Below are positions 15,501 to 58,718 of a stretch of DNA of 64,000 nucleotides, one piece after another. Every line of letters starts with the position of its first letter. Positions within the stretch are counted from its first letter, which is position 1. Both the position numbers and the translations under genes were made by a program. The notes under the pieces were generated by a model, which did not search any database, was not told the origin of the DNA, and saw only the letters and a list, made by a program, of their open reading frames with translations. This DNA is from a virus. The stretch lies in the UHGV virus genome UHGV-0023958; one strand, 5' to 3'.

Positions 15501-15535
15501 AACTCCGTTAAATGGTCAACGGGGTTGTTTTTATA
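15501..15535 (+). terminator. Rho-independent terminator: 9-bp stem AACTCCGTT/AACGGGGTT followed by a T-run.
   Basis: Read from the sequence. Confidence 0.4.
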
Positions 15536-16664: not shown

Positions 16665-16700
16665 GAGATGGGGTTGAAAAATACCCCATCTCTTTTTAAC
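16665..16700 (+). terminator. Rho-independent terminator: perfect 10-bp stem GAGATGGGGT/ACCCCATCTC, then TTTTT.
   Basis: Read from the sequence. Confidence 0.6.
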
Positions 16701-30571: not shown

Positions 30572-31060
30572 ATGGCTTTATCATAGAAAGATGTTCACCT
30601 TGATTTAGGGTTATTAAAATCTTTAAATAAAAAAGATTTAGAAGACGCTTTAAAATATTTAACTGAAAATCTTGAAAAGATTTTTAAAAGTAATATAGAA
30701 GAAGTTTATAGGATAAATACTTCGGTTTTAAAAGGAAATTACGTTCCATTAGAAGAAATGTTATCTGCTGTTACAGTAGTATATAATATGCATCCTCCTT
30801 CTTGTAAAATATACATAGATGAAGATAAAATCACTTGGAAAGATTCTGAGGGCGAATCTGTACATAGTATTCCTTTAAACAAACAATATTACGATGGGTT
30901 TGTTACAAAAGAAGTTAAAACTTTAAATGAATATTGGATGTTGCCTATATCTTCAATACAAGAAGAATCTTGGATTATTGATAGAACTTATAAGGGAATA
31001 GTGGAATTTATTCAAAAAGAGTTTGTTCAATATATTTCTAACAAATTAAGGAGGAAATAA
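30572..31060 (+). CDS. possible second tail chaperone with an in-frame TAG at 30584
   Basis: AAGGAGG site and ATG at 30572, in frame with the ORF starting at 30758. Confidence 0.4.
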
Positions 31061-31062
31061 TA

Positions 31063-34000
31063 ATGGCGGATAAAAAGGAAATCGAAATTAAATTGAATTC
31101 AGATGATATTATCAAGCAAATAGAAAAAGGCATTCAAGGAGTTTCTTTTGATGTTAAACTTGACACTGATTTTGGTAAACATGAATATGTCGCTCTCGAT
31201 AAAAAAGTTTAGGAATATTTAAAAAGCAAAAATGCAGTTGTTATTTCAGCTACACAGTTTGCGCATTTAATGGAAACTGGTTATGCAAGTTTTGAAGCAG
31301 AAATAAATGACTTAGAGAAGAAAATTAAAACATCAACCGGTGAAGAAAAAACAAAATTAGAGCAAAGATTAAAAGATGTAAAGAAATTTAGCGAACAAAG
31401 CATGAATAAGGCACATGTTGGTACTGAAATCCATAAACTTCTTGAGTTATAGGAGAAGGGGTTTATTGATTTAAACAAAGAGAGAGAATCTTTAAATAAA
31501 ATCTATGCTCAAATGAATAAAGATAAAAACTCTTTGCAAGAATTAAGGACATTAGTAGGTTCATCATCTTTTGTTACTGATAATAATTTCAAAAAAGCTT
31601 TTAGAAGAGCGCAAGAAATGAATAAGATGAGGGTTTCTGCTGGTATGACTGGAGGTCAAGCAGAAACCGCCCGCGCTTTTGCTTATATTCACAATGGGAA
31701 ATTATATATTGCTGCTGGTGCAACAGATTGGACAAAAACTGGAGGTATGTATGATAAGATCGGAGATTATAAAACAACTTCAGAGTTTAATCCGGTTCAC
31801 AATTTAATTCAAACAGCCGTCAACGCCAATGCGATGCGCGCTGCTTCTGGAAATAAAACAAGAGATGTTAAGGGATAGATTGTTCATTTACCAGTTACAA
31901 AAGATAGAAACCTAAATCAATATACAGCTGGCATGGTGTATAATATATCTACTGGAAGCTGGGAAGAAAATATGGCTTTAATACAAGCTCTTACAGATGT
32001 ATATGAGGGTAAGGGCGATAGATCAAACATCAAAATACCAGGAAGATACACCGGTGGCGTTACAAGTGGAACATATACAGATGTAACTGGGGCAGAAAAA
32101 ACCGTAACATATTGGAATGGTAAAACTTTAAAGAAATGGCTAAAAAGCGATCAAAAAGATATGGAAAGTATGATCTCTTCATTATCTTTAGAGGATAAAA
32201 ATCATTTTTTGAGACTATTGTTTGGGCAAAGTAATGGAAATTTTTGGTATACAATTGGTTCTAGTAATGAGTTGAGAAAAAAATATAAATCTCAATATGA
32301 CTAGATTGTTGCGAATAAAGAAAATAGCAATTACTATCTTCAAGACATAGGTGGTTCTTGGGAAATCGGAGAAGATGGTAGTTGGAAATTTATTCCAAGA
32401 GAAAGTACTTCCGAAAGTAGATAGAAAGCATCTAAAAATATGTATAATAAAGATTGGTGGGAAATCGCATAGGAATAGGATGAAAATAGACTAATTAATG
32501 ATTTTTCTAATAACAGAAAAGATATAGATGAACAAACGGCGGCACAAATGGTCCCAGTTGCCTCTAGAAGATTAGCAAGAATTATAGATTATTCTAATAA
32601 AGTAGATAGAATCACTCAAGAAATAATTAAAAGAAATCCAGAGTTAGAAGGTAGGGATGTTGAAGAGGTTTCAAAAGAATTTTTAAAAGCTACAAATCCA
32701 AAAAATTTAGATAGATATCTAAGATCAAAGGAGCTTTTAGCAGCTTTCCCGAAGGAAGGAACAGATCAAGAAAAATATGAATTTGCATATCAAGGTTTAA
32801 GAGAAGATTCTAATGAGGAATCCAAACTTAAAAATATGCTTTATATAATTGAACAGGCTGGATTATTAGACAAAGTAAAGTCCGGATACATGGATTGGGA
32901 AAAATATTTTTTTAAACAACAAAAATCGATTCCTTATTCTGTTTTAACATCAATGGCTACGGGTAAAATGCTTGGATACGAAGAAGATGAGTTGAGGCCA
33001 GAGTACGCGGAACAGAGGTCTTAGATAAAAACATTAACATAGGTTGATGAAAAATATATCTCAGATATGAAGAATCAGATGGGAGATGAAATATTATCTA
33101 CAGCAGAAGACGAGATTGATTTTTTTAAAAGAAAGATATCCGAACTCGGTAAACAAAAAGGATTGGATGAAGACGCAATAAATTCTGCATTGGAGAAAGT
33201 CGATTATGCTGTTGAAGATACCGCTGCATAGAGTATTGAAGATGTTTAGAAATATATAAATAGCCAATATGATGCAAGTGAAATTGAATCTTTTGAAGCT
33301 TTACATGAAGCAATGGGTGTCGGGGAATTTTCTGGAGAAGAAACACCATTACAAGAAGAATTTGAAAATAGTCAAGATAATCTTTATCAACAAATTGATG
33401 AAAAACAAAAAGAATTCGAGGCAATTTATAGAACGCAAGTATAGGCATTTAATGATTATATTATGTATATGGCCAAAGATATGCTTTCTCTTGCCAATGA
33501 AATAAATGAAAATAGCAAAAAAAATAATAAAAAAAATCAATAGAAGAAGAAACAGACAATTGATCAAGAATCTAAAAAAATTGAAGAATCTTCTAAAGAA
33601 ATTGCACAAAATATTGTTAATAATGCTATAGATAACGCAGTCAAACAAACAGAAGAGGTTGCGCAAATATATACATCGTCAGCAAAAATTTCCAAAGAAG
33701 AAAATAAACCTGTTTTAAAAGACGGTGTTTATGTTTGGTCTAGAACTGGTAGAAGATTATCCGCAAAACAACTTTCTTCACGTGGTTTACAAAATAATCC
33801 TCCTTCTGGAAATATTCAATATTTTGGTGGCCCAATTCCAGTTTATCCAGCTGGTCAAGGTGGAGAATTAGATCCAAATAAAACATATAGAGAAACTGGT
33901 ATAACGGTTGATGCCGAAAATAAGATAGTAAGTAGAACTTTAAAAGAAGTTCAAAAGAGACAAGACGGTGGCAAGCGTGGATCGTCTCAGCTTGATGTAA

Positions 34001-37000
34001 TTAAACAGATCAAAGAAGACACTGGAAAAATTGTAAATATAATGGAATAGCAACCACCCGTTTCTGGTGGTGGTATGCCACCAGAGATTCCAACTACCGG
34101 TGGCGGAACTTCTGGCGGTAGTAAGAAAGGCAAATCTAAAGAAGATAAGCAAAAAGAAAAAGAAGATAAACAGGTTGAAGCTCAAAGAAAAAAAAATAAT
34201 CAAGAATACGCAAAAGCCTTAAAGACAGAATACGATTATCAATTGAAGATTGATGATGCAAGACGTAAGTCCAATATAACTTCCGGTAGAGAAAGAAAGT
34301 CTTAGCAAGAATTTATAAAAGTTGCACAATAGCAATTGAAAATAGCACAAGCAACAACTCAAGAAAGAAGAAAGGCTGTTACAGATAAAGATGCTGCGCT
34401 TATTGAATCTGGCTTACAAGGTCAGTTTTCTGTTAAACGTGCCGCAATATATACAAAAGATAAAGGTGCACGTAATATATTCGACCTTATGGGCGATGAT
34501 ATCAAGAGAGCTTTTTAGAGAATTACAGATTTTGGTGTGGCTGCTCGTATTTTGAATAAAGTTCAAAAAGAAATTGCTAATGTATATCAAAATATATTGA
34601 AGCTCAATGAAGCAATGACAGACATTCGTATTGTAACTGGTGCGAGTGTTGATGAAGCGAATTCTTTAATGACTAGTTATAATAAACTCGCAAAAGAACT
34701 TGGCACAACAACAACCGAGGTTGCAAAGTCTGCAAGCGAATGGATGCGTCAAGGCTATACTGCAAGCGAATCTGTTAATTTGATTACTTCTTCTGTAAAA
34801 CTTGCTCGTCTAGGCTTCATGGATATGAGTTCCGCGACAACATCGTTGACGGCTGTTCTTAAAGGTTTCAATCTTCAAGCTACTGAATCATCTAAAATTG
34901 TTGATAAGCTTACAAAACTCGATGCCGAATACGCGACAACAGCTGGCGATATCGCTAACGCATTATCAAGAACGGCTGCTGCCGCAAAAGCAGCCAATCT
35001 CGATCTCGATCAAACTGCAGCAATGCTTACTACAATTATTGATATTACGCAGCAAGATGCTGGTAGCGTTGGTAATGCTTTAAAGACGATTTTGTCAAGA
35101 TATGGAAATGTTAAAGCTGGCGTATTTGCTGGAATGGCAGAAGATGGGGAAGACGCATCTGAAAGCATAAACGATGTTGAAAAGGTGCTGAATGCGATTG
35201 GTATTCAGATCCGTTCGACTTCAACAGAAATGCGTGGTTTTGATGAAGTCCTCGATGATTTGGCTGAAAAATGGGATAATTTAAACGATGTCGAACAAAA
35301 CGCCGTTGCAACTGCTATGGCTGGTGTAAGACAGCGCAACCAATTTTTAGCCTTGATGCAAAACTACAACCAATATAAAGAAAGTTTGGAATCTTCTCGT
35401 ACATCTTCTGGTACGGCAGATGAAAAATATGCTGCGGTTATGGATAGCATTGCTACTTCTATGCAAAAAATACAAACTGCGTGGGAAAGTTTTACACAAA
35501 AACTTCAAGCGAGTGGATTTGTAAAAACATTCTTTAAGGCAATTGCAGGTGTTGTTGAAAATATTGATAAGATACTTCCAAATATTGTGGCGATGTTGAC
35601 GGCTATTGCTGGAAAACACCTTCCAACTATAGGAATGAAGGTCCAAGGTTTATTTGGCGGTGGAAGTCGTATGGGGAAAGGTGTCAGAGCTGCTTTCGGA
35701 CGAAGTGGATCATTTGAACAAGAAAGTTTAAGAGAACTTGCAGAATACAAAAAAGGACTTGGCTATAAAGATGAGGAACTTTCTGAAGCAGAAAGAAAAA
35801 TCCTTGGTTCTGGGCACCAAGAAAATACCGCAGATGATAAAACAGCATCCAATACCGATTAGATTAAATCTGATGTTTCTACTATAAAGGCTTATTTACA
35901 AAACAAAAAAGCAGGAGGTGCTACCACTCCGAATACTGGAGATGATACAAATCAAAACGTAGAGGCTGGTGGCAGTCAAAAAGTTTCTAATAAAAAAGGT
36001 AAAGCTAAAGGAACAAAATTTTTAAAAAAAGCTAGAATAGCCTCTGGTGTTACGACTGGAATAGCATCGGGACTTTCTTCTGGTATGACTGCTAATTATG
36101 GTGATTTTACAAGCACTGCTGACAAAATATTTACTGGTGCTGCTTCTGGTATATTTTCTGGTGTTGGAACCGCTCTTGCTGGTCCTATTGGGGGTATCAT
36201 AGGCACGGCGTTTGGATAGAAAATCGGTGAGATATTTTATGGACAATTTCACAAAGAAGAAATTGCTCGTCGCAAACGTGTTGATGAAGCTAAGAAGCAA
36301 CTTGAAGCTACTCAAAAGGTAGAATCTGCAATTACCTCCGCCGAAGAATTAATAAGCAAAGATAGAAGCGAATGGGGTTCGGAAGAGTATAAGCAAGAAA
36401 AAGAAGTAATTGACTAGATGCGACTTGGATTACAAACTTCAAGCACATTAGCAGAAAACTTTGCAAAACTTTCTGGTAAGCCTACCGATGTTTCTGATTG
36501 GCTTCTTAAGTTATCTTCTGATTTAACATAGCTTGATAAAAGCGTTATTGCAAATTATCGTGCGGCTCAAATTTTGACGGAAGCGCAAGAAACATATAAA
36601 GCTGGCGAAGAAGATCGTGCGGCGTTATATGATAAGCTTGGAAGTGCAGAAGCTTCCATGCTTAATCAAATTCAGAACATAGATTCTGCTTCTTCGGAGT
36701 ATCTTGAAAAACATAAAGAATATGAGAGCAAATACGGGAGGACAGTTGAATCTGGTATTGCTTCAATGCAACAAGCGCAAATGCAATTAGATGCGTTTAC
36801 TGATGCGTTGCACGAAGGATATATGCAAGCCGCATTTTATTCTTCTGGGGTTTCTCAAATGTCTTCGACGGATATCGCCGGGGCGAGTCTCGATAGAGTT
36901 GTTGCCGAGGTCGCTCGTGCTTGGGCGGCAAGTGATGCTACTGCTTTAGTGTTTGCTAATGGAATGCTTTTGGATAGTGCAAGAAAATAGATTGTAGCGT

Positions 37001-39387
37001 ATTTAAAAACACAATCTGATTTTACGTCATTAACAAAATCTCCTGGTGGAAGTTTCCGAGAAATATTAGATGCTAGAGATGATATTGGAGATTATTTAAA
37101 TAAAACTGGTAATGATTATACCAAATTAAAAAATATAGTCAATCAACAAGATTTTAAGAAAATAAGAGAATTTTTTGGATATGATTCTAAGGATACAACA
37201 AAAGATTCTTATATTAAAGATATAATTGATAAAATCAATAAAGCTGATCCAACAAATATTGAATTGATTGCGCATGGATTAAACATGACTGTTGAAGAAG
37301 CAGAAAAACTCAAAGATGTTATAGGAACAATAACCCTTTCTGATATTTTAAACGGAGCGAACAAACTTTTAGATAAGTTTGACGAATTAAATACGATTCT
37401 TGGAGAGATTAGCGATAATGATATTTTATCTCCAGATACAATGAATAAAATAGTCAAGAATTTTCCAAATTTATTAAAAGGAACCGATGAAAGTGGAAAT
37501 GTTACTATATCAAGAGATAACATTATAAGAAATCTTACAAAGTAGATTACAGATCCAAATGGTACTTACGCAACTGGATATATTGGTAAAGTGGCAACAG
37601 GAGCAAAAACCGAATCTAAATACTGGGATTTATTTAAAGATGTTGCTGATTAGTATTTTACCGGAGATACGCTTAAATAGATAATGAATTATAGCAATTT
37701 CGAAGGTGCGGAATCTATAATGATGAGACCGGAGAATAAGTAGGCATTGTAGAGATTTGGTGAAATAGTTGCGACTTCAACAGGGATTATTGATTAGCAA
37801 GAAAGAGCTAGAAATACATTAATTGAAGCGGAAAACAAATCTTTGGAAAAACAAATCGATAATTTACAATCCATTAAAGATTCAATTGGAGATATCAATA
37901 AACAAAGAGAAAAAGAGCTTAATTTAATAAAGGCTCGCGATGCGCTTGAAAATGCGAAAAAAGAAAAGAAGCTTGTTTATCGTGCCGGTATTGGATTTGT
38001 TGCTACGTCAGACTCTTCTGCAATATAGGAGGCTCAAAAGAAAGTTGATGATTTGCAAAATCAACAAACTCAAGAAGATTTACAATATCAAATAGATTAG
38101 CTTAATCAACAAAAAGCAATATTAGAGGCGATTAAGAATGATCCCAATATGGAGAGCTTAAAAAATACTGCGGAAATTATAAAAGATGAATTGATGTAGA
38201 AAACGCCAGGTGGTATTCTTGGGCTATTAAAAAATTTAGATCCAGAAACTTTTTCTGATAATGTTCGAGACGGCATTGTGAAAAGTATTACAGAAAAAAC
38301 GCTAGCCGTTGGGCAAGATACATACAGAAACATAAAGTTTTCGTTAGACACTTTGTTATAGGATTATAAAGATTTTTATGATACAAAAAATTATGAAGGA
38401 AGTGGACAATCTGTTCAATCTATTTTAGAAGATCCGTCAAATATTTATTTTTCTCGCGTTTCAAATTCAATAAAAGAAAAACAAAGTGCTATAGAAAGTA
38501 AGAAAAAAGAGCTAGATAATTTAAAAGAGAAGTATTTTTCTGGCGATAATAAATCGTTATTAGGAAGTTATGGCGGAGCAATTGAAAATATACAAAATTA
38601 TTATAAAGAAAAATATGGAACAGATGATTATTAGGATGTGTCAAAGTTAAAATTTAACAAAGAGGGTATTTTGTTAGATTTAGAAAATGCTTCTGGTGAT
38701 TATCATGAAAATTATTTTACAATGGTCAAATACACAAATGAGGCGGTATCCGATGATTCTTTTACCGATAATAAACATCGAAAATATAAAAAATCACCCG
38801 GTAAATCTTGGGAAAGCTTGGGTAAATCATGGAACGATATTGTAGAAAATGATTTGTTATAGCCGGGAGATTTCGTTTTAGTAGATTTAAAAGGAAATAA
38901 ACTCGCCTATGTTGGTGTTGATAAAAAATTATATTGGGTACAAACTAAAAAGCCGAAAGATTAGAGTTATGGTGGTTATGGCGATGTTAATGACACAACA
39001 AAAGGAAATAACCCCGATATAGATTATTCTAATATGCGAGCCAAAGGTGATTATAATTATCAAGGTGGCAACGTTCTCATTAACGAACTTGGTACAGAAG
39101 CTATTGTAACACCACAGGGTACGCTTACATCACTTCCTTCTCATTCTGGTATTGTTCCTGCCGATCTCACAAAGAATTTGTTTGCTCTTGGCGAGATTGC
39201 TCCAAATCTTATTGCGACTCTTCGTAATCAGATGCCAAATGTTTCTAAATCGAATTCTACTAGCAATGATAATTCTACGAATATCGGAACTGTTTATGCA
39301 ACATTTAATGCAGATAGCGGATTTGATATGAACAGATTTATGATCGACTTGCGCTCTGCCGCTGGCAACACAAGACACAACAACTAA
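31063..39387 (+). CDS. tail tape measure protein, 2,774 aa, a single frame containing 35 TAG codons
   Basis: Frame 1 runs continuously from ATG 31063 to TAA 39385-39387 with no TAA or TGA. The twelve ORF-track pieces are all in the same frame and are separated only by TAG. The segment 34537-35862 carries the tape-measure core pattern (…TEVAKSASEWMRQGYTASESVNLITSSVKLARLGF…) and Gly-rich hydrophobic stretches. Confidence 0.75.
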
Positions 39388-39457
39388 ATAAAATAATGAA
39401 ATAACGCGGTTGAAATATATCGCGTTATTTCAAAATAAATATATAAGGAGAAAATAT

Positions 39458-40168
39458 ATGTATTATTTGGATTACGCAAAAAAAGTTGGAGATAGATATA
39501 TTTTGAATTTTTTTGCTGATACAGCTGAAGATATCGCAGACGTTCCAACAAATACACCATATATCACACGTAATGGTACGAATTATGGTGTTCCGCTTGA
39601 AACATCTATTGTTACAGTTATTGAAAATGATGTTCGTAAGAATTATGTTCTTCAAAACGGTGTTTATATTGCGGGGGGTGATGTACCCTCTGTGCTTGGT
39701 ATGCTCGAAGCAACAGAAAACAAAACATATAAAGCTTCTGACGAAGACCTCGAAGGGTATTCAACCGTAACTGTAAATGTAGAGCCGAAGTTGCAATCGA
39801 AATCTGTTACGGCAAATGGCACCGTTACACCTGATGCTTCTTACGATGGTCTTTCGCAGGTTACGGTTAATGTTCCCCCTACAACTCCAAAATTACAAGC
39901 TAAAACAGCAACAATAAATGGCGTTGTTAAACCAGATGCTACTTATGATGGTTTGTCGCAAGTAACTGTAAACGTTCCAGCTACTCCTATGGAAACAAAG
40001 ACGGTTGAGCCGAATTTCTCGAATGGCAGCGAGGTTCTTACACCGACAGAAGGCAAGGTTTTCTCTTCTGTGACTTTAACAAAACCCGCTACGTTGCTTC
40101 CCGAAAATATTAAAAAGGGAGTTATTATTTGTGGTATCGAGGGTACTTACGAAGCCGCTGGCGCATAA
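39458..40168 (+). CDS. distal tail protein paralog A with an internal tandem repeat of about 35 aa
   Basis: MYYLDYAKKVGDRYILNFFADT… is paralogous to the N-terminus of the gene at 40901. The repeat is KLQ.K..T.NG.V.PDA.YDGLSQVTVNVP. Confidence 0.45.
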   Translation: MYYLDYAKKVGDRYILNFFADTAEDIADVPTNTPYITRNGTNYGVPLETSIVTVIENDVRKNYVLQNGVYIAGGDVPSVLGMLEATENKTYKASDEDLEGYSTVTVNVEPKLQSKSVTANGTVTPDASYDGLSQVTVNVPPTTPKLQAKTATINGVVKPDATYDGLSQVTVNVPATPMETKTVEPNFSNGSEVLTPTEGKVFSSVTLTKPATLLPENIKKGVIICGIEGTYEAAGA

Positions 40169-40178
40169 TTGGTGATTT

Positions 40179-40838
40179 ATGATGAAAAAGTCTAAAAGAA
40201 TTCTTATGATGATTGGTTTTTATTTTCTTTCATTCACTTGGGGGTTCATAATGAGTTTCATTGGGTTGTTTGTCGTTTTTGGTTCGTGCTTAATTACAAA
40301 AACAAAACCGAAGAGATTTGGTTTGTGTACGTATAATATTATTGGTGAGTATTGGGGCGGATCTAATTGGGGATTTGGTTTTATCAGCGATAAAAGGTCT
40401 CCGAAATCAACTTATTGCCATGAACACGGTCACGGTTTACAAAATATAATTTTTGGACCGCTTATGCCGTTTATTGTTTGTATACCAAGTGCTGTCAGAT
40501 ATGGACTGTTTGATTGCGATACAGATAGAGATAAAATTAAGTTTTTATCGATTTTCTGTAGTTTGTTCGCTTTGGCGTTCTTTATTCCGATGATGATTGG
40601 TATATTTGCAAGCTGCTTGCCAGTAATTATTGTGTTCGGTATTTTGTTTTTATACGCTATCATTTTGATTGTTTGGCTTGTATTTTTCGAAGCACCGAAA
40701 CACAAAGGAAGACTGCACCCAGATTATGATTCCATCTGGTTTGAAGGGGATGCTACTCGCAGGGGAACTGCGTTTATGGAAAAGTGTTTTCCAGAAGAAA
40801 TTTATAAAGTTAGTAGACTACCCATTAGCTTTAGCTGA
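40179..40838 (+). CDS. multi-pass membrane protein with an HEHGH (HExxH-like) motif; a moron between paralogous tail genes
   Basis: Four to five hydrophobic segments, the sequence CHEHGHG, and a local GC shift. Confidence 0.4.
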   Translation: MMKKSKRILMMIGFYFLSFTWGFIMSFIGLFVVFGSCLITKTKPKRFGLCTYNIIGEYWGGSNWGFGFISDKRSPKSTYCHEHGHGLQNIIFGPLMPFIVCIPSAVRYGLFDCDTDRDKIKFLSIFCSLFALAFFIPMMIGIFASCLPVIIVFGILFLYAIILIVWLVFFEAPKHKGRLHPDYDSIWFEGDATRRGTAFMEKCFPEEIYKVSRLPISFS

Positions 40839-40900
40839 TGGGTGATCCACATGAGTAGTTCACAAAAAAATAAATATGATTAAAAAAAGAAGGGGGTATT

Positions 40901-41737
40901 ATGTTATATTTAGATTATGCGAAGCCCGTTGAAGGTGGTTATATACTTAACTTTTTCGCTGATAAAGTTGAAGATATGGAAGCTATAACTGGCGGAAAAG
41001 AATTTGTTACAAAAAACGGCACGAATTACGGCGTTCCCCTTAAAGGTTCTACTGTCGTAATAACTGCTCCCGATAAAGAAAAGAAGACGTTTATTCTTGA
41101 TGAAAATGGCGAATGGAATGAAGGCGGATTAAACCCGAATGAGTTTTACACGAAGGAAGCTGCTGACGAAAAATTTATGGAAAAGGTAGTTAACATTAAC
41201 CTCTCCCCTGATACTGCTACACGAGGCACTTTGACAGAAGAATAGTTAGCTACCTTGATGAAAGACGATAATAATTATATCACTCTTAACAAAGAAATCT
41301 ATCGGTTAGCAGACAAGCAATACACCACAGAAATTATCTCCTATGTCAATACAGGTGTGGGTAGTAATATAATTTATATCACTGTTTCTACAAGAGCTTG
41401 GACTTTGGTTGTAGGGGAGAGGCCAAGTACGGTTTATAAACACGAGCTTACCCTCGTTGATAAAGATAATCAACACATAGAGATATCATTGATTAACAAT
41501 TGGAAGTTCGAATATGACGATCAGAATTTACGTGAGTTGGTGGGTGGTGGCACGTACTCAACTGTTGGACGTTCTGATATTAGCTTTGACGGTTCAGAGT
41601 TAGGTTTATACAATTTTTTTAGTATAGACGGTGCTACTGTAGATGGTTATGCTTATTATATTAAAACAGACGGAACAATAGGTATACAAGAGTTAAGTAC
41701 AGTACGCGTTGATAGTGACTTGGTGACGGACTTTTAA
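40901..41737 (+). CDS. distal tail protein paralog B with an in-frame TAG at 41243
   Basis: AAGGGGG site. The ORF-track pieces at 40901 and 41255 share frame 2. Confidence 0.45.
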
Positions 41738-42064
41738 CATTTAAACCTCATATCCCGCTGGTGAAAAAGACGCTACGGTGCATCTGGTGTGATAACTGGC
41801 GGAACCGCCACTTTAAGTGATGGTACGAGTGTACCGATAACTATAACTACCGCCGAAGCATAATTCGGCATAAACACTTTATCTCCCTTTCCCCCAATTT
41901 GAGAGGGGAGGAATAATAAATAAAATTTAGGTTTTATTATACAGCCCAGTTTTTGTTCGGTTTTCTGTAAAAAAATCGAACACCAATAAGTTTGGGTGTG
42001 GCGAGTGAGATACCTCCCGCCCGCCACAACTCAATATAAAAAATAAAAGAGGAGGCAAGAGATT

Positions 42065-45000
42065 ATGGCAGTTTTTAAACCGACAAATTGTTCGCCGTAT
42101 TTAACATCTTTTGATATTACATATTTGAATGAAGGACCAATTTATTTTCAATGTAAAATAGATACGTCAAACACAAATATTGACGGATATGCTATAACTG
42201 TTTATGATAGTGATAATCATAAAATTTTTCCGCATAATGGAAACGCAGTCGATAATATATCATATATCAAAGATCTTCATTATGATACAACGAAGATTGG
42301 ATCGATTATTTCTGATGATGGAATTTCTGATTTAAACACTGGTTTAAACGGAAGTTATTTAAAAATTCCTTTTGTTGTAAACAATGGTTAGAATAGTTAT
42401 CTAACAAACACAACGAGAAAAAATGTTGTTGTGTATAATAAAAAAACAGACGGAAGTTATGAAATAAAAGATAATTCTGGAAATATCATTAAATTATATA
42501 ACGGAAATCAGTATAAATGGACAATAACTTTATATTAGCTCGGACAAGACGCTGTTGATAATAAGAAATCTAGGCCAGAAGAAATTAAATATTATGATAT
42601 GACAGTGGCTTCTGGCAAAATTCTTGGATCTACCAATGAAAGAATCCAAAGCTATCCGAGCGATCAAATTTATAATGATTACTTTTTACAATTATATAGT
42701 GCTCCAGTTGTTAATGTTGGTCCTGATTTTTAGATTACAAAAATTACAGGAGATGTAAAACAAGTTGGAACGAGGGTTAGAATTAAAGATTACGATTCGT
42801 ATCTCGGACACATGTATTTACAAACTGGACAAGATGGTTTGTCTGAGAAAAATTTAGATATATCAAATGTTTTCCAAGTTTTTAAAATGAGTAATAACCC
42901 AGATGATTTGGGCACAAAAGACAAAGTTGATTTTTGCATTAGTCAAAAATACTTTGTGCCAAAGTATTTCCAAGAATCTAAATCTGATTCATCGGCAGCA
43001 TATTTATCTCAAACATTTGTTATTGCAAACGTCACTGGTTCAAGTGCCTCTGAAACTTTGGAAAAAGTGAAAGATGTTTATAATAAGCCGTTTTTTGAAA
43101 ACACTGAAACTTTGTATGGTTTACCTTCATCTAATCAATATTACTCTAAAATTTTTAGTGGTTATGACGGAGACAATTCTCCCCCGGTTATATTTGGTTA
43201 GTCAAGAGTTTTATTGAATACGGAAAATAATAACAACGAATTAGATGAAAGTAGTGGGGCCGTAACTGGTACTAAGGATTATGGACCGAATGGAGGTAGT
43301 TCTAAGTTTAACGGTATATGGATTCCAAAAACACCAACTGTTGAAAAGATTGCAGAACATTAGAATGAAGGTAAATACACTGGAACAGATTATAAAATAA
43401 CAATTCAATGGTATCGTTCTTCTGATGCTGATACATGGGGAGAAATCACAAACAAAGTCGTTTTAGATACCAACAATTTCAACAGTGATTATGATTCGTT
43501 CGCAGGTCAAAATCTTCAAGCATATACTTCTGAGCAAGAAGGAGAGCAAGTTTCAACCGGTACTATTAATGATACGCTTATAAAATTTAACAACGAAGAA
43601 CCTGTTGAAATTTATTCAAATAATTCTTACGAACATAACTATGGATTTATTTATAAAAACAACATGGACATAACTGCATGGTTAGCGTCTATAACTGGTG
43701 AGACAACGCATGTACTAACTTATACATACATTTGTAAAAACACTTGGAGGGTAACTGGAAAGCCAAAGTGGCGCGAAGGCGATAATTTTAATGATTGGAT
43801 TGGAAATCCTATTTATTTTATAGAGAAAGATAATAATATATTTCAAGACAAGCATCAATATCAAATTTTAGCATATCGTAATCCAAGTAACTCTTACTTA
43901 CAAGCGGAGGTTAAGTTTAATTTAAATGAACAATATACTACTTATTATAGTGGGAATTATGGTTTAGATTGTTTTAATCCACCAGAGGAGTGGGAGAAGT
44001 GTGAAATACGCGTTGTTTGGAAAAATGATGCCGCAACAGATAAAAACTTAGATCTCCCAGAAGTTAATGATACAATTCAGTTTTTTATATATGATATAAC
44101 AACTGGAATTATTAATTTTATTTCTCCGTCTACAGCCGTGTCTGTTGGAGATAAAATATTCAATAAAGATAATTCTTCTTCGAATGTTGTGTTGTTAAAT
44201 AAAACTGTTTGGGCGATTGGACAAGAGCAAGATGTTTCTACATATAAATATAAAAACAATGAAGGTCGGTTGGTAGACTATAATTATTATCCGATTTTAA
44301 ACTTCAAAACAAACGATTTATATTCAATTAAAACATTCTTCCGTTCGAGCAGCGAAAATCAATTTAGTTTATATGAACGTCCAACTGTCGATTTAGAATT
44401 ATACGGCGTTTCAGGCGGTGCAAAGATAGAAATTAATGCTGCTGATAAAACATGCAAAACCTATGAGAGAAGTATTTTTGCATAGGCTATTTATAATCAA
44501 ACCAATTTGGTTCAGTGGAGAAATTATCAATGGTTTCTTTACGATGTTCCAAATATTTACGAAAACGCCGATGCGTATAAAACAGCAGCTGGATCTGCTT
44601 TGACAAAATATTTAAATCCGAATGATCTTATTTTGCAATCAGAAGTTGGTTATGATAAAGAGATAAAATATACGTTTTATGGTTTGGCAGAAGAACACCA
44701 TTGGTATATTATATCACTTGTTTTGACAGATCAATACGGAACAATTATTACAAAGAAAATTGCTGTTTATACTGATTTTACAGTGGAATTAGAACAAGAT
44801 AAAGATTGGGTTAATTATGGTCTTCGGTGTGATTTAACCGGCGTCGATATGTGGTTTGAAGATAAATACGGTTATATATATCCGAATTTGGGTGATAGAA
44901 ATTATTTGATAGAAACCAACAACAAATATGCAAACAATCCAAATGGCGTTACGTATTCTGATAGTGTTATGAATATATCTGATAACTCAGAAGGTGTTTT

Positions 45001-46201
45001 ATATGATAGCGTATATAGCAATGACGGATTAAGTTCTTGGAATTCCCCTTCTAAACAAAATTTAACTTTTGATCAGAATAAAGGTATCGAATTTACGACG
45101 AGGGTTACAATAGACAGTTATCAATACTCGGCAGAATTTCTAAACGTTGTTATTAATACAGATGGCGGAAACACAAAGAACTTGGTTTTGAAACCAGAAG
45201 ATTTATATATAAGTTCTAATGATTGGCCAGAAGGTTATAAAGTTGGTTTCCCGAATTATGAGTGCTATAAGATTGGTAATTATGCTATCGGGGAAAATCC
45301 GAACGTATATGTTTATGGGAATGTAACAACCGATTTGTTCCCTAATTCTGATTCTTATAATTCTTGTATTAAATATAATAATTACTATATATCTTATATT
45401 CCTTCGAACGTAGTTCCCCTTGGAGCTAATAAACCTTCTATAAATATTCCAAATTCTTGGTATTTTATCAATTATGATGAAGAAAATAGTGTTAAAGATA
45501 TAATAAGTGATAAACCGATAAAGATAAATAAGATGATTTATGCTTTAGATGATCCCGATGGGCTATAGAACAAAGATGTATTTTATAATTTGCCAATATT
45601 TATAAGAAACGATTTATCTTTAAGCGGGAAAACAATAGAAAATTTACCTGATGGAACTAAGGTTTATAGTCTTTGGATGGATAAAAACGATGAGATAATT
45701 ATACCAACAATAGTTGCTATAAATGAATCTGCTAATACTTTTTACTATTGTTATAGAAAAGTCAATAATCATCAAGAGGATATATCAGATAATATCTGGG
45801 AAGATACAAAAGAAAACGGAGAAGATAATATTTGGGAAGACGAAATTACAGTAGAAGATACTCAATCTGACCATTTAAAAAATAAAGATGGCTCGTTGAA
45901 TACGATTAGAAATCGTTTGTATGGCAAAGTTTTATATTTTTATGTTCAGTGGAGCGGAAAAGAAAACGACGATATCACATACGGCATTGTTGGAAATGTA
46001 TCACAAAGAGTAATAGATGTTGATTCTGAATTGTCGTTGACTTCTGTTAATCCAGTTGAGAACAGGGTAATTACAACTGCTTTAAATTCAAAATTAGATA
46101 CAACAACGTTATCTGATTAGAACACATTTGGTATATTTAAATGTTATACAGATAAATTTGGAATATTAACTTTTGTTACTGGGGAGGGTGAAAATGGCTA
46201 A
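42065..46201 (+). CDS. large tail/baseplate protein, about 1,378 aa, with 8 in-frame TAG codons
   Basis: AAGAGGAGG site. Frame 2 is open from 42065 to TAA at 46199 with TAGs only at 42389, 42536, 42731, 43199, 43361, 44483, 45566 and 46118. Confidence 0.5.
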
Positions 46202-47789
46202 TATTAAGATAGGTATAAGTAGCGGTTATAAACCACAAGATTTTGGTGATCCTTCAAGAAAATCAAGAGTTTCTTATTTATATGCTTATAACAAAGACGA
46301 ATCTTCTCCGTCAAATAGAAATTTTCCAGCGATTTTTTCAAAGAAAGCATATAATGATATTATGAACGACGAAAATAAAGATTTTTTATTGTTTGCGTTG
46401 AACTATACAGCTGAAAAAGTCAACGGTTTGACAATGCCGCTCCCAGATGGAATTGTTTCAGAAGGATTAAAAACGTTTCCGCAAAGGTCTATTTATAAAA
46501 GAGAAGTGTGGAGAGATGATGACAACCAGGTGCATTATGAAAAAATATTACACCCGGTTGTTTTACAAAACAATGTTTCTCGTGTTATAGACTATAATGT
46601 AACAACAAATAGAAATTATGAATATATAATTTATTTGACAGATCAAAGAGGAAGTCAAACTATCCAAAGAGAAATACATTTCCCAATAACAACAAAGTGG
46701 GATTATTGGTCTATTTCTGAATTACATAGAACAAGCGAATAGAATGTTTATACAACATCCGAAAATGAAACGTGGTTATTTAAATTTAATGTTGAACCGG
46801 GGGAACAACAGCAGAATGTTTCTAAATCGCAACAAGATACGCTTGGTAAATACCCTGCTTTTTCTTATGGAAAAAAGAATTATACCACAAGTTCTGTTTC
46901 TTGTTTGCTTGGCTCCGAAATGCTTCCCTTTGACTTTTTAACAACGAATTATGTTCTTGTAAGAAACGAAGATGGTAGCGTTTCATGGGGTTTGGCGCAA
47001 GATGTCAGTGAGGTATATGGCGGATATACAGAATCTCGTTGGAAGAAACTATTAGATCAATGCGGAATGAACGAACGTGTTGTTAATATTTTTGACACAA
47101 AAATCACATCTAATGACAGTGTTGATATGTTGAATGAGTGGAAGAAATTGTGCAATTCTGGAAACCCGAAGTTGTATAAAAATTCCAAAGGTCAGTCGTT
47201 TATTATACAGATAACCGAATTTTCAAATTCAATTAATGAATCTTGGGATAAACAGCCGATAACTATCAATTTTAGTTGGACAGAAATTGCAGATGCAAGC
47301 GATGCAAGAATAATACAAACAACCGAATTCACAACCGATACAAGCGGAAGTGTTTCTGGTGGAGGAGATGAGCCAGTGATGGATTATAATATTCTTTCTA
47401 ATAAACCACAGATAAACGGTGTTGAGTTGGTTGGAAATAAAACGGATAAAGATTTATATCTGGAAGCAGAAGGTAATATTAAATCTATTTCTGGAACAAG
47501 TCCTTCTGTAAAATTAGACAACAACATCACTTATAATCTTGGTTCGATTAACGGATTAACAACAACATTTGGTAGTATTAATGACGAATACTATAAAAAT
47601 CGTCAGTGTTCACAGGCAGAAATTAACTTTACTGCCGCAAGTAATTTCACATATACACCTCCAGAAAATACAACAATTATAGGTGGAGATGTTGAGGGTG
47701 GAAAACTCAGTGCTAAAAAGGGCACTTCTTACAACATAGGATTTGGATATGTTGATAATGTTATGTATGCCGTTTGTGGCATTAGATAA
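46194..47789 (+). CDS. baseplate/tail protein with one in-frame TAG at 46740
   Basis: GGGGAGGGTGA site. Frame 0 is open to TAA at 47787. Confidence 0.5.
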
Positions 47790-47811
47790 AATATAAAAAG
47801 GAGAGGTAAAT

Positions 47812-49062
47812 ATGATTTATAATTCATCTTAGTTTTCTTTACAAGGAAGCGGAGAGGTAATTTCTATTACCTCTCCTTATTTATTTGATCAATATTATAA
47901 TTTTTATTATATAGAAGATTATATTAAAAACAAACACATATAGCCGAGATTTAAAATATATGTTTTAAATGCCGATGAAACCGAGAGATATGAAATTCCA
48001 AATGGAGATATTATCAGCGGTAGTTATTCCGAAAACTATCAAAATGGTCAGAGGAGAACGTTGTCCTTTCAATTAAATAATAATAATGGAGAATATACGC
48101 CGTCAATTAATCATTTTTGGACTGGGCAGAAATTTTCTTTTTATATTGGATTCAATATGAATAACGATGAAAATAGTGTTATTTGGTTTAGAAAAGGAAT
48201 CTATTCTTGCCAAAATCAAAGCGTTGATAATTCATCTGATACGAAAACGGTTAGTATAGAAACAGCTGATAAATTTTCTGTTTTGGAAGGGAAAAGCGGA
48301 ACATTGGAGTATTCTTATACAATTAATGTAGGAGAGGATATTGAAGAAGTTATAAACAACATATTAAACACGGACAATGGTTCTGGTTTTATGTTGGATT
48401 CAAAAGGCATTGTTTATCATTCTTTATTTAAAGATAAAAAGGTAATTTCTCAAATATCAGAATCTGCTGGCGCAACTTACGGTTCAATTATTTTAAAACT
48501 TGCAGAAATGCTTTCTGCAGAAGTTTTTTATAATGTCAACGGTAATTTGACGTTAATTCCGAAACAAGAAGTTATCAACGATTCCGACAAGCCGATTTTG
48601 TTTTCTTTTAATGCAGACAACGGGGATTTGATGACACATAATTACAGTTTTTCTTTCGAAGATATTGTAAACAAGGTTATTGTTATCGGTTCAAATGTTA
48701 ATGGAAGCACGTGTAGAGCGACGGCTGTCAACAACTCCGCAGATTCTCCAATCAGTGTATCAAGAATTGGCTATAGAACAGGATCAATAATTAATGATTC
48801 TTCGATTAATTCAGATTATCTTGCGCAGGAAAGAGCTGATTATGAATTAAGAAAAGTAAGTGTTGCTAAAACAAGTGTAAGTAACACGGCGTTATTGAAT
48901 CCTTTAATAGAAGTAAACAATTTAATAGAAATTACCGATAATTTTTACGGTATAGAAAACGAAAAATTCCTTGTTCAATCGATTTCTTTTTCGTTAGATT
49001 ATAGCGGAACGATGTCGATTTCAAGTTCAAATATAAACAATCTTTCATTTACGAATAGATAA
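47812..49062 (+). CDS. tail/baseplate protein. The N-terminal extension contains TAGs at 47830 and 47941 and an embedded perfect hairpin.
   Basis: AAAAGGAGAGGTAAAT followed by ATG. Frame 1 stays open for 83 codons up to the ORF starting at 48061. The alternative is a TTG start at 48061 with a GAGGAGA site. Confidence 0.4.
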
Positions 49063-49072
49063 GGAGGGACGT

Positions 49073-50764
49073 ATGAATAAGACAGAACAAGCAAATGGCT
49101 TTTTAAATATAATACGCTCCATTATCAAAGAGGAACAAGATAAGCGCGACAGGGTTGAAATTTGTCAAATTGATAGCGTAAATGAAGATGGGACAGTAAA
49201 TATAAAAATGCTTTCAGATTTTGAAACTGTTAGAATAATTCCAAATATTTCAAATCAATCGATATATAGTTTTAAAAATGGAGATTTGGCTATTATTTAT
49301 ATGATTCAAAATCAATTATCGAACGCGTTTATAATTGCTAAATGCGGTCCGACAAATGAAAGTTTAAGAATATCTTCGTCGGATGGTGATACAACTGGCG
49401 GAGGCACTGTTATACAAAATATAACATATCAAAGCGGAACTACTAGCGGCGTAACATCTGTCAATGGTAAAACGGGCGAGGTTACTATTACTGCATAGGA
49501 TCTTGGAGCAATTACTGAAATTCCAGATGTAACACAAATACAATCAACAGATATTTCTTCGCTAGTTTATGATACAACAAATGGTGCCGCTTTTGAAATA
49601 AATAACAGTATTATCTTTTCAGATGGAACAAAAAATAACCCACTTTTAAAATTCAATTTGCCCATTATCGGCATCAATGGTATTAGTATAGATAAATCTA
49701 ATGGTAAAAATGTTCTGGAAATTTCAGGAAAAGATTTGCAAGATTTAATTAATTCTATATCCTTGACTAGTGGTACGAATAATGGAACTTTAAAATTAAC
49801 CGTTGGTACAACTATTGTTGATAATATTAAAGTTACGGGTTTTGATAAAAAGCAAGACCAGCTTAGCGAGAGCCAATTAAATGCTGTTAATTCTGGAATA
49901 ACTTCAGAAAAAGTAACCACTTATGATGAATACCAGTCTTAGATTAATTCTAAATACACAAAACCCGATGGCGGTATTCCGAAGTCAGATTTGTCTTCGG
50001 ATGTTCAAAGTTCTTTGGTGAAAGCCGATTCTGCCTTACAAACCCATCAGAAAATTACAACTGGTAGTGCGAACGGAACGATTGCCGTTGATGGGACTGA
50101 TGTTTCTGTTAAAGGATTAGGTTCTCTTGCGTACAAAAATTCTTTGACAAAAACAGATGTTGGACTTGGAAACGTTGATAATACATCGGATGAAGCCAAA
50201 CCAATTTCTACCGCAACACAAACAGCCTTAGATGGGAAAGTAAATACTACAACAACGGTAAACGGTCACGCGTTATCTTCTAATGTTACTATTACACAAT
50301 CGGATGTCGGTTTGGGTAATGTTATTAACGCAGGGCAAGATCCAACACCAACATCCGATTCTATAAATTATGTTACTTCTGGTGGTGTTAAAAGTTATGT
50401 TGACAACGGGTTAAACAAAAAAGCGGATTTACTAGTTAATGAATCAACGGTTACTACTGTATAGTCTGGCCGCTTGTATGAGTTTACTGATATTCACAAT
50501 CCATTTAGTTTATCTATCAATATGGATACATTTAAAACATCTAATGATGTTTCGCAGATTTATTTCACGGCAGCAGCTAATTTTGATGTTGTCCTTAATG
50601 TTTCTTCTGGTGTTAGAATAATCGGAGATGGTGTTAATGCGAGTACCAAAAAAATTTCTTGTGTTAAAGGCAATTCGTATTATTTTACTTTTGGTTATAC
50701 AAAAAAAGGTGTTTCTATTGTAAGTAATATTGATGCAAATTGGAGTGAGATAGCAACGGTATAA
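49073..50764 (+). CDS. tail fibre protein with 3 in-frame TAG codons
   Basis: AAGGAGGGAC site. It contains the conserved tail-fibre motif DVGLGNVDNTSDEAKPIS (present twice). TAGs at 49496, 49940 and 50462; TAA stop. Confidence 0.55.
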
Positions 50765-50866
50765 TATTTATAATATATAATAATATTATAATATATATAT
50801 AATAAAATAAAACAAATAAAAAGAAAATAAAGTAACTTTTTATTTTTGAAAATAAGGCGAAATCCC

Positions 50867-50895
50867 TTGACTTTGGGGTGATAATATGTTATAAT
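50867..50895 (+). promoter_or_regulatory. sigma-A type promoter: TTGACT, 17-nt spacer, TGtTATAAT
   Basis: Lies upstream of the dUTPase/nrd operon, after an AT-rich low-complexity tract. Confidence 0.5.
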
Positions 50896-50960
50896 ATACT
50901 CCAAAGCCAAGGGTGAAAGTCTTTGGTTTAGAAAGTTTTAAGAAAAGAGGTCAGTTTTAT

Positions 50961-55000: not shown

Positions 55001-55021
55001 TTTTAAACAAGGAGGTTGTTT

Positions 55022-56227
55022 ATGGAAAACGTATTGATTGAATTTAAAAATAAAGCTAAAAAGCAAAACATTATTAAGGCAGGGTTGTGTTCTGTAGCAA
55101 TCTCCTTGTTATTTAATATTCCGTTTTTGATAGCTTTTTGGATTATGGATTATAAATATAAATTTATAATTTGCGCTGGAATTTTTATTGTCGGAATCTC
55201 CGTTTTGTTTCCAGTTTTATATTTCAAAAAGTTTAAATATACCGAAATTCAATTAGCAAAAATAATTGACGATCTTGGTTTAGAAGAACGTGTTTTGACA
55301 ATGATTGAATTAAAAGATAATAATTCTTTTATTGCAAAGAAGCAAAAAGAAGATACGTTGAACGTCCTGAAAACCGTAGAGGCGAATGATTTAAAAGGAA
55401 AATATAAAAAACAATCATTTCTTTCGATATTTTCAACTGCATTGGCATCTTTGGTAATTGCTTTATCTTTAATGTTTCCAAATATTAGAGAAACTATTAT
55501 CGCTCGCGGAGAACCAAAATATACAATTGAAGTGTCTGCAGAAGGTCTCGGTTTTGTGATTGATTATTCTAAATATGAAAATCAATCTTTGATAAATGCC
55601 GTTTCTAAAAAACAAGAACAAGATGAAATCAATAAAATTAACAATAAAGAAATAGTTGAATTAAAACAATTCCCGACTGTATTTTCAAATAGAATTTCCG
55701 TAAATTATAGATGTTTCGAAGATATTGATGCAACTATGGTTTTAGACGGTGCCAACTTTGCAGATGTTTCTTATAGAATACAATCCGATGAAACACATAT
55801 TTTAATGGCACTTCCTTATAAAGGATATGTGTTTGTTGGTTGGTCAGACGGTTGTGCTTCTCCGTTCAGAGAAATTGACAATTATTCCACCGACTTGATT
55901 GCATTGTTCGATGAAGTAAGTTCCGTAGGTGAAGACTTACCAGATAAACAAAAAGAACCGGGAGACAAAGATGGATCTGATGGTGGTGAGTCTGATGGAA
56001 TTGGACCCGAAGGAAATGGAACCGGTAAAACAAACAATGATAATAGTTGGGGCGATGGAGCGAAAGGTTCGCCAGCAAATCAAGTAATTAACGGTGAAAC
56101 TTATTATGGTGATATTTTTAATCAAAGCTATCAAGAGGCTGTTGAAAGAATAAAGAATGATACAAATTTAACAGATGCACAAAAGAAAGCTATAACTGAT
56201 TACTTTGAATCAATAAGAAAAAATTAA
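55022..56227 (+). CDS. membrane protein (two transmembrane helices) with a Gly/Asp-rich C-terminal region
   Basis: AAGGAGG site. Confidence 0.5.
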   Translation: MENVLIEFKNKAKKQNIIKAGLCSVAISLLFNIPFLIAFWIMDYKYKFIICAGIFIVGISVLFPVLYFKKFKYTEIQLAKIIDDLGLEERVLTMIELKDNNSFIAKKQKEDTLNVLKTVEANDLKGKYKKQSFLSIFSTALASLVIALSLMFPNIRETIIARGEPKYTIEVSAEGLGFVIDYSKYENQSLINAVSKKQEQDEINKINNKEIVELKQFPTVFSNRISVNYRCFEDIDATMVLDGANFADVSYRIQSDETHILMALPYKGYVFVGWSDGCASPFREIDNYSTDLIALFDEVSSVGEDLPDKQKEPGDKDGSDGGESDGIGPEGNGTGKTNNDNSWGDGAKGSPANQVINGETYYGDIFNQSYQEAVERIKNDTNLTDAQKKAITDYFESIRKN

Positions 56228-57050: not shown

Positions 57051-57061
57051 AATAAATTTTA

Positions 57062-57100
57062 AGAGGAGTGTCAAAATTACTTGACATTCCTCTTTTTTTA
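57062..57100 (+). terminator. Rho-independent terminator: 13-bp stem AGAGGAGTGTCAA/TTGACATTCCTCT followed by T7. Its 3' arm contains the -35 box of the next promoter.
   Basis: Read from the sequence. Confidence 0.6.
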
Positions 57101-58540: not shown

Positions 58541-58562
58541 ATATATGTTATAAACGCGTGAT

Positions 58563-58580
58563 GTCAAATCTAGATTTGAC
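58563..58580 (+). promoter_or_regulatory. perfect 18-bp palindrome GTCAAATCTAGATTTGAC between the promoter and the tRNA; candidate operator or leader hairpin
   Basis: Nine-plus-nine perfect inverted repeat. Confidence 0.4.
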
Positions 58581-58610
58581 AAAACGTGATTATATAAAAT
58601 TACTGTACAG

Positions 58611-58685
58611 TGGGGAATAGCATAACGGTAGTGCGGTGCTCTCTAAAAGCACTCTGTGTCGGTTCGAGCCCGACTTCCCCCGCCA
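58611..58685 (+). tRNA. amber suppressor tRNA, anticodon CUA (reads UAG), with Gln-like identity elements
   Basis: A manual cloverleaf gives a 7-bp acceptor with a T1·C72 mismatch. U8; D stem GCAT/GTGC with G18G19; anticodon stem GTGCT/AGCAC with loop CT-CTA-AA (U33, CUA at 58643-58645, A37); 5-nt variable loop; T arm GTCGG-TTCGAGC-CCGAC; G73; encoded CCA. G2-C71, G3-C70, G10, G73 and a weak 1:72 pair are the E. coli tRNA-Gln identity set. Confidence 0.8.
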
Positions 58686-58718
58686 GTAACGATTAAAAAT
58701 AAAATGGAGGTAATGCTT

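Follow-up and report, generated by a model that had tools for sequence, protein, structure and literature searches.

The window analysed here is a stretch of 64,000 nucleotides (nt) of the virus genome UHGV-0023958, given as one strand and with a guanine-cytosine (GC) content of 33.6%. Its late tail operon spans roughly 20 kb (31063-50764), and the second-to-last gene of this operon codes for a tail or baseplate-hub-like protein (the hub gene in what follows), which is separated by an intergenic gap of 22 nt from the 531-codon gene before it and is followed by a tail-fibre gene and then by a dUTPase gene. The subject of this work is a putative RNA element of about 80 nt at the start of the hub gene, consisting of four segments and running from the ribosome-binding site, with its Shine-Dalgarno (SD) sequence, to codon 22. 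The parts of the element and the two genes around it are the following:

46194-47789, plus strand: upstream cistron of 531 codons with one TAG, whose TAA stop (47787-47789) lies 8 nt before segment 1
47798-47809, plus strand: segment 1, the SD region AAGGAGAGGTAA, with the core GGAGAGG at 47800-47806
47812-49062, plus strand: hub gene of 416 codons, with TAG (glutamine) at codons 7 and 44, assigned to DUF5048, phrog_1887 (tail protein) and phrog_177 (baseplate hub)
47830-47832, plus strand: in-frame TAG at codon 7, decoded as glutamine and present as TAG in 18 of 19 distinct relatives
47832-47840, plus strand: segment 2, the pyrimidine tract GUUUUCUUU, predicted to pair with the SD (1:2) or with AAGGAAGC at 47843-47850 (2:3')
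47851-47861, plus strand: segment 3, 5' arm of the hairpin, GGAGAGGTAAT, which copies the SD and codes for G14-E15-V16-I17
47862-47865, plus strand: loop TTCT, which holds the sole variable base of the hairpin (TCT/TCA, synonymous)
47866-47876, plus strand: segment 4, the hairpin 3' arm ATTACCTCTCC, an anti-SD whose partner is segment 3 or segment 1
47877-47886, plus strand: T-rich tail TTATTTATTT, coding for (P)YLF, the first two T of which lengthen the SD:anti-SD helix
47941-47943, plus strand: second in-frame TAG, at codon 44, evolutionarily labile

Segments 3 and 4 form a perfect hairpin of 11 base pairs (bp) at 47851-47876, with five G-C pairs, a 4-nt loop and a free energy of -16.4 kcal/mol, which occupies codons 14-22 of the hub gene. 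It begins 18 nt past the TAG of codon 7, 39 nt from the AUG and 62 nt beyond the stop codon of the upstream cistron. An initial annotation of this DNA, made from the letters alone, had pointed to both the TAG (47830) and the hairpin, and both are found in the sequence as described. It had also judged a perfect stem within a coding sequence to be unusual, and so it is: the stem is the longest perfect one of the 64 kb window and is clearly selected. Perfect-stem hairpins of -16.4 kcal/mol or below were obtained in 2 of 200 dinucleotide shuffles, and RNA folding, proposed in the same annotation as a check, predicts the hairpin within a 111-nt region with a folding z-score of -4.1, in competition with a fold between the SD and the 3' arm. 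The hairpin is more than a product of chance. Its sequence occurs once per contig and is confined to the 12 IMG/VR contigs that bear the hub gene, with no match in 185,579 representative bacterial and archaeal genomes; at Rfam gathering thresholds the hairpin region matches no RNA family, a tRNA being the sole match in the window. Downstream of the stem, the tail UUAUUUAUUU has U at 8 of 10 positions in an interrupted run and scores within the top 0.9% of window positions.

The two arms of the hairpin correspond to the ribosome-binding site itself, one as a copy and the other as a complement. The 10 nt GGAGAGGTAA at 47800-47809, which precede the start ATG at 47812, recur without change in the 5' arm, as the initial annotation had noticed. 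Because the 5' arm equals the SD region over these 10 nt, the 3' arm complements both of them, and together with the following TT it complements the SD over 12 nt, in a duplex of -19.7 to -20.5 kcal/mol. When the ribosome-binding sites of 50 window genes were paired with their own early codons, the hub gene gave the strongest pairing, a perfect one of 12 nt at -20.5 kcal/mol against a median of -9.4 kcal/mol. The 10-mer shared by the SD and the hairpin is absent elsewhere in the window and in the related contigs.

Conservation was followed in 19 distinct gene sequences (the window, L001-L012, L067 and L070-L075), with nt identities down to 73%. Across the hub gene, 80% of the third codon positions vary in this set. 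In the 26-nt hairpin, by comparison, one site varies, located in the loop (TCT or TCA), and the arms are invariant; over 26 nt, the gene is nowhere else so constant, the median being 12 variable sites, and the base directly 3' of the stem already varies among relatives. Codon bias was ruled out as the cause of this invariance, since the stems use minority codons (GAG, 18%; ACC, in the 3' arm, 12%; GTA, 28%). The sequence GGAGAGGTAA at the ribosome-binding site is likewise invariant in every relative, L067 included, and the ribosome-binding site and spacer of the downstream gene in those same genomes vary in both sequence and length. L067 (73% nt identity) differs at many positions from the start codon to the hairpin and has a 4-nt indel in the spacer; the two copies are spaced by 55 bp instead of 51 bp, its codon 7 is CAG and its flanks differ, while segments 1, 3 and 4 are the same as in the rest of the set. 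Conservation is lowest in the T tract, which is eroded in L011, L012 and L075 (top 3%), with amino-acid replacements, and lies at the 28th percentile in L067. As judged from these alignments, the hairpin is a genuine cis element, unusual and under strong selection, and the ribosome-binding site is constrained beyond the needs of such a site.

The two pairings open to segment 4 are nearly equal in energy. Constrained minimum free energies (ViennaRNA) amount to -28.5 kcal/mol with the local hairpin and -27.7 kcal/mol with the SD:3' arm helix, and the ensemble probability of the latter is 0.73-0.89 in the window sequence. On sequential folding, the SD is predicted to pair with the pyrimidine tract just past the TAG; upon emergence of the 3' arm, the local hairpin appears (1:2 + 3:4), and two bases later it gives way to the clamp of the SD by the 3' arm (1:4 + 2:3'). 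In either fold, the prediction has the SD base-paired. The RNAalifold consensus, which includes the pairing of segment 2, contains changes on one side of a pair, G.U to G-C for example.

Pairing between the ribosome-binding site and the early codons extends to other members of the gene family. Homologues of the hub protein number 481, and the best 120 of them are mostly of 404-427 amino acids. The aligned ones, with lengths of 410-427 amino acids, start at residue 1, and the 5' arm codes for part of a family-wide motif, (A/G)SG(D/E)V(I/L)S, so that what the initial annotation had called an N-terminal extension belongs to the ancestral protein. A different start or an untranslated N-terminus was rejected on the same alignment from residue 1 and on the SG(D/E)V encoded by the 5' arm, there being also no in-frame ATG, GTG or TTG before 48061; an internal start at the in-frame ATT of 47866 was dropped, as the SD copy and the ATT would both be buried in the hairpin and nothing supports it. 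The distant homologues (43-59% identity) keep the N-terminus and have neither the early TAG nor this hairpin, which is restricted, with one copy per genome, to the clade of the window. The initial annotation had proposed to look for hairpin and TAG in homologous genes: the hairpin is present in all 19 relatives and the TAG in 18 of them, both are missing farther out, where the N-terminus is retained, a pattern that the annotation had named as refuting its proposal and that shows only that they are specific to the clade.

In several distant lineages, the region of the ribosome-binding site is instead complementary to coding positions +40 to +77, through a different sequence in each: GGCGGAGTAA / TTACTCCGCC in L035, GAGTAGAGGA / TCCTCTACTC in L031, and, in the nearest outgroup clade, a perfect pairing of 11 bp, GGAGGAATAAA / TTTATTCCTCC, in L099 (271-373). 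Such complementarity is also seen in L046, L032 and L069. The sister lineages L099 and L069 (2971-3075) pair the site with codons 19-25 through different sequences, and L100-L102 do not have the pairing. Cognate pairs of site and coding sequence are stronger than non-cognate ones (permutation p about 5e-5); set against control segments of the same locus, 5 of 22 cognate pairs reach p <= 0.05, with a Fisher combined p of 9e-4. These comparisons suggest that pairing of the ribosome-binding site with codons 15-25 recurs in the gene family without being universal in it. A further case is found in the same phage, in the gene at 55022-56227, whose SD region AACAAGGAGGTTG pairs over 13 bp with CAATCTCCTTGTT in its own coding positions +82 to +96 (window 55006-55117). 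One pair of this helix reads C-G, U.G (L088, L089 and L097) or U-A (L095) across relatives, a compensatory series that, at the level of the alignment, is direct covariation for a helix between an SD and its own coding sequence in this lineage. An unrelated perfect hairpin of 13 bp, TTTCTATATCGGT-GTAGAT-ACCGATATAGAAA, without a T tail, was observed at codons 23-33 in L038 (2554-2585) and L043; L047 has merely a partial palindrome at that place.

The codon that precedes the hairpin belongs to a recoded gene. TAG encodes glutamine, and the phage is one of genetic code 15 as read from its genes, because TAG positions mostly alternate with CAA or CAG between relatives: in the hub gene this is the case at 9 of 14 positions, one of them being Gln codon 339, within the conserved LAQERADYELR. 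The codon-44 TAG is replaced by CAA, CAT, AAG, TCG or CGT in relatives, and the other TAG positions of the gene similarly come and go, codon 7 being the most stable. About 65 in-frame TAGs lie in late genes (63 in the structure test described below), and taking TAG as a sense codon joins fragmented open reading frames (ORFs) into frames of 2774 codons with 35 TAGs and of 1378 codons with 8. The tRNA able to read them is encoded by the phage:

58611-58685, plus strand: phage suppressor tRNA with anticodon CUA, detected by ARAGORN and matching the Rfam tRNA family with 52.8 bits

The read-through foreseen in the initial annotation is thus supported by the tRNA(CUA), by the long TAG-containing ORFs and by the alternation with CAA and CAG, and the frame of 83 open codons described there holds only with TAG as a sense codon, a second in-frame TAG lying at codon 44. 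Since the TAG is read through by the suppressor tRNA, the hairpin lies inside a translated ORF. The codon-7 TAG is most likely an ordinary recoded glutamine codon rather than a dedicated sensor of the hairpin, and full translation depends on the suppressor here as at the other TAGs.

Several observations accompany the recoding. The 2774-codon ORF (31063-39387) is the heaviest TAG user of the window and possibly a tape-measure or giant tail protein. In one metagenomic relative, L070, codon 103 of the hub gene is TAG in place of the family-invariant Trp103 (TGG), a sequencing error or a tolerated glutamine. The suppressor tRNA is preceded by an imperfect palindrome of 26 nt (58549-58594), and in the gene that starts at 58713, codons 5 and 15 are TAG; no ribozyme was found beside the tRNA(CUA) at the Rfam gathering threshold. 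The relatives are contigs of 94-148 kb from human-gut samples, and no DNA-level match to the window phage was found among GenBank phage records. Strong SD sequences precede nearly every window gene and the closest annotated protein relatives are tail proteins of Thomasclavelia phages (27% identity), which together suggest a Bacillota host.

The reading that we favour, tentatively and as possible rather than probable, is that translation initiation of the hub gene is governed by a switch made of the SD, its copy and the anti-SD. Segment 4, the anti-SD, would pair either with segment 3, giving the perfect local hairpin, or with segment 1, the true SD, giving a clamp of 10-12 bp that masks the ribosome-binding site. 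As long as segment 4 has not been transcribed, a weak pairing with the pyrimidine segment 2 is predicted to hold the SD, and in the resting fold the SD would be occluded. The trigger that opens the clamp would be ribosomes coming from the upstream cistron, the stop codon of which precedes segment 1 by 8 nt; upon opening, the decoy arm (segment 3, acting as an anti-anti-SD) would capture the anti-SD and keep the site open during ongoing translation. The 3:4 fold, being a hairpin with a U-rich tail, may also terminate a fraction of the transcripts. We infer that RNA rather than DNA is the target of selection, and the direction of the switch and its trigger are inferred in the same way. The switch is favoured because it covers the invariance of three segments, the sequence that the 5' arm shares with the site, the closeness in energy of the two folds and the analogous pairings found elsewhere. 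The footprint of an initiating ribosome reaches only 13 nt into the coding region (PMC5435973). With the footprint ending there, a hairpin at +40 cannot directly repress initiation, and any effect on it would have to come through pairing of the SD.

Several points weigh against this reading. Segments 1, 3 and 4 never vary, which leaves the hub locus without covariation or compensatory changes and makes its sequence compatible with a constraint acting on DNA. Complementarity between the ribosome-binding site and the coding sequence is present in just about a quarter of the distant lineages. The predicted equilibria differ among relatives, with the local hairpin dominating in L012, L075 and L067, and nearest-neighbour energies are too coarse for differences of about 1 kcal/mol. 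Kinetically, the local hairpin, with its 4-nt loop, should win over a helix that closes a loop of 55 nt. A ribosome terminating at 47787-47789 would touch just the first bases of the clamp, and the switch gives no account of the T-rich tail, whose score ranks within the top 1% of positions for most members of the clade.

The other explanations start from the likeness of the hairpin to a terminator, from its stability or from the repeated sequence. According to the initial annotation, it would be a suppressor-dependent attenuator: without the tRNA, the ribosome would stop at UAG, the 3:4 hairpin would form and transcription would end, whereas with the tRNA the hairpin would be melted by translation. 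On such a model, transcription of the distal tail genes would have to await the change of code. The architecture goes some way with this, as the hairpin and its U-rich tail rank third among the terminator-like sites of the window, the tail scoring in the top 0.9%, and the codon-7 TAG is the most stable of the gene (18 of 19 relatives). With UAG in the A site, the ribosome would extend over the RNA to about position 47842, masking segment 2 and leaving 3:4 free in the manner of a trp leader, and sequential folding does give 1:2 + 3:4 as the 3' arm emerges. L067, the sole relative without the TAG at codon 7, is also without the T-rich tail, a joint loss or gain that counts as one event. Yet the hairpin and the SD copy are preserved without any change in this same relative, with CAG as codon 7 and no T tail, which means that something other than attenuation conserves the hairpin and that the control codon is not always conserved along with it. 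In addition, the tail is interrupted, is the least conserved part and tolerates replacements, whereas the four genuine terminators of the window all have TTTTT; the 63 TAGs of the window are not enriched for downstream structure compared with CAA and CAG codons (p = 0.73); and the 39 nt between the AUG and the hairpin would not let a new ribosome catch the polymerase without a pause or tight coupling. In Bacillota, transcription tends to outrun translation, and the host is probably a member of this phylum. In the alternative fold 1:4 + 2:3', a helix still abuts the U tract and the SD is hidden, with no clear antiterminator in it, and the attenuator gives no reason for the match of the ribosome-binding site to the 5' arm. 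What stands of the proposal is that stopping of the ribosome at codon 7 would not keep the hairpin from forming; as a whole, we consider it improbable. Much the same doubt attaches to a checkpoint that would link the code switch to the distal tail genes, in which a stop at UAG would keep 1:2 + 3:4 and cause termination, a re-clamped site or both, and read-through would melt the hairpin and commit the mRNA. No significant enrichment of TAG was found in the first 10 codons of genes (p = 0.15); other early TAGs were seen at codon 5 of gene 30572 (30572-30700), followed by weak hairpins made of A and U only, and at codon 19 of gene 25310 (25310-25370). A readthrough-stimulating function was rejected, there being no excess of structure after TAGs and the hairpin being kept in L067 without TAG, and a general rule of a TAG followed by a hairpin fell with the same test of 63 TAGs.

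An unlikely explanation is that the hairpin is a constitutive leaky terminator or a 3'-end-stabilising hairpin that was placed in the first hub codons owing to the 22-nt gap, with no involvement of the TAG, the hub and tail-fibre genes, with which the late operon ends, being then transcribed less than the upstream ones. Its stem, loop and energy indeed equal those of the true terminators at 10914, 15501, 16665 and 57061, it is the only such site in the late operon of about 20 kb (31063-50764), it lies 62 nt beyond the upstream stop codon, and its T-rich tail is unlikely by chance. Nonetheless, this tail is the part that is least conserved and is absent in L067, a terminator has no need for a conserved exact copy of its 5' arm at the ribosome-binding site, no stoichiometric reason is evident to down-tune the hub and fibre genes, and, as the hairpin lies within the ORF (codons 14-22, in the family-conserved N-terminus), translating ribosomes would often block its folding. 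Partial termination at the 3:4 fold is plausible on physical grounds and may occur alongside the switch. An element for processing or stability of the polycistronic late transcript, acting as a nuclease site or as a protective boundary structure, would fit a stable and strongly conserved hairpin at a cistron boundary, and Bacillota mRNAs are known to be stabilised by SD-like sequences and 5'-proximal hairpins; but a stem of 11 bp is short for RNase III, the other cistron boundaries of the window have no related element and the conserved complementarity to the true SD is not accounted for, which makes this very improbable. We give even less credit to a site at the DNA level, where the inverted repeat and the third copy would be bound by a dimeric regulator of the phage or host or by a recombination factor. 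Such a site would agree with arms that are invariant, without the G.U-type variation expected of an RNA helix, and with one 10-mer present in three copies. It agrees poorly with one of these copies being a functional SD at the correct distance from the ATG, with the shift in copy spacing from 51 to 55 bp in L067, with a motif found nowhere else in the window or the related contigs, and with the analogous pairings elsewhere, which use unrelated sequences and fit RNA pairing rather than a shared protein site. Three further candidates were discarded: a dispersed repeat or mobile element, the hairpin being single-copy and found only with the hub gene; translational bypass, the interval from TAG to hairpin coding in frame for the conserved GSGEV motif in all homologues; and a terminator for the minus strand, on which there is no T tail.

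Apart from the hairpin, four canonical intergenic terminators are present on the plus strand of the window (10914-10932, 15501-15526, 16665-16692 and 57061-57094), located 11-39 nt past a stop codon and followed by TTTTT; in the one at 57061, the 5' arm of the stem, AAGAGGAG, is SD-like and the 3' arm anti-SD-like. No canonical terminator was found at the end of the late operon, before the dUTPase gene. Between the tail-fibre and dUTPase genes (50765-50960) lies an AT-only intergenic region with many palindromes and repeats, probably the boundary of a module, in which an extended -10 promoter close to the consensus (TTGACT-17-TG-TATAAT) was observed at 50867-50895.

Switches that sequester an SD by competing pairings are known from the hok mRNA and from the maturation gene of phage MS2, which is under kinetic folding control. 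In the aapA3 type I toxin mRNA, metastable hairpins sequester the SD, and one of these lies inside the ORF (PMC6733600). The hub element would share with these three systems an anti-SD in or near the ORF, a second partner that competes for it and an order of transcription that decides the first fold, and it differs from them in its competitor, an exact 10-nt copy of the SD located 4 nt from the anti-SD, which gives a terminator-like hairpin. Contrary to aapA3 and hok, the gene is a phage structural gene in a polycistronic late operon and not a toxin gene, and neither an antisense RNA nor a processing step is known for it. Translational coupling by site occlusion, as in the long-range coat-replicase interaction of MS2 and in many operons where upstream translation opens the next site, is close in that the site of the downstream cistron is base-paired and the upstream stop lies a few nt before the helix; in the hub gene, though, the partner lies downstream, in its own codons 19-22, and a decoy arm is added.

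Intrinsic terminators and the ribosome-mediated attenuators of the trp and pyrBI type are a second group for comparison. As in these attenuators, there are four segments, with 1:2 + 3:4 set against 2:3 (+1:4), a GC-containing 3:4 hairpin followed by a U-rich tract, and a stop codon before segment 2. Here, on the other hand, the equivalent of the leader ORF is a structural gene, the alternative fold hides the SD and forms no clear antiterminator, the U tract is interrupted and not conserved, and the stop is a recoded sense codon that is dispensable in one relative. Stable structures shortly 3' of an in-frame stop are also found in recoding signals, such as the selenocysteine insertion sequence (SECIS), the proposed pyrrolysine insertion sequence (PYLIS) and viral readthrough stimulators, and in the translational bypass of T4 gene 60, and the hub hairpin resembles all of them in this position. 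Unlike with SECIS and PYLIS, the other 62 TAGs have no such structures and the hairpin persists where the TAG is CAG; unlike in T4 gene 60, the sequence between TAG and hairpin is translated and conserved as protein, and nothing is bypassed.

Recoded gut phages read TAG as glutamine by means of a phage suppressor tRNA (bioRxiv 10.1101/2021.08.26.457843; Phassvirus-like, PMC10607447), and recoding has been proposed to time the translation of their late genes (bioRxiv 10.1101/2021.08.26.457843). The window phage resembles them in its low GC content, its tRNA(CUA), the concentration of TAGs in structural late genes and its probable Bacillota host. In those studies, control was proposed at translation only and no RNA structure was tied to a particular TAG, and our targeted full-text literature searches (stop-codon recoding, combined with suppressor tRNA and terminator or with late genes) found no such structure described for a recoded phage. 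These phages are thought to time their late genes by suppressor tRNAs, and no cis RNA element has so far been tied to this programme. The locus described here is a compact and experimentally tractable element of some 80 nt, located where a TAG-containing tail gene begins, with very strong selection on synonymous sites. Should the element sense TAG read-through, a change of the genetic code would be coupled directly to gene expression, and a checkpoint of that kind would be the first cis-RNA device shown to sense stop-codon suppression in a recoded phage. If, instead, the switch between SD, decoy and anti-SD is the true one, the SD variant GGAGGTGA, which keeps the strength of the site and does not pair with the 3' arm, would raise expression, and an uncultured phage would set the translation of a structural gene through the gene's own codons, by a design with a built-in decoy.

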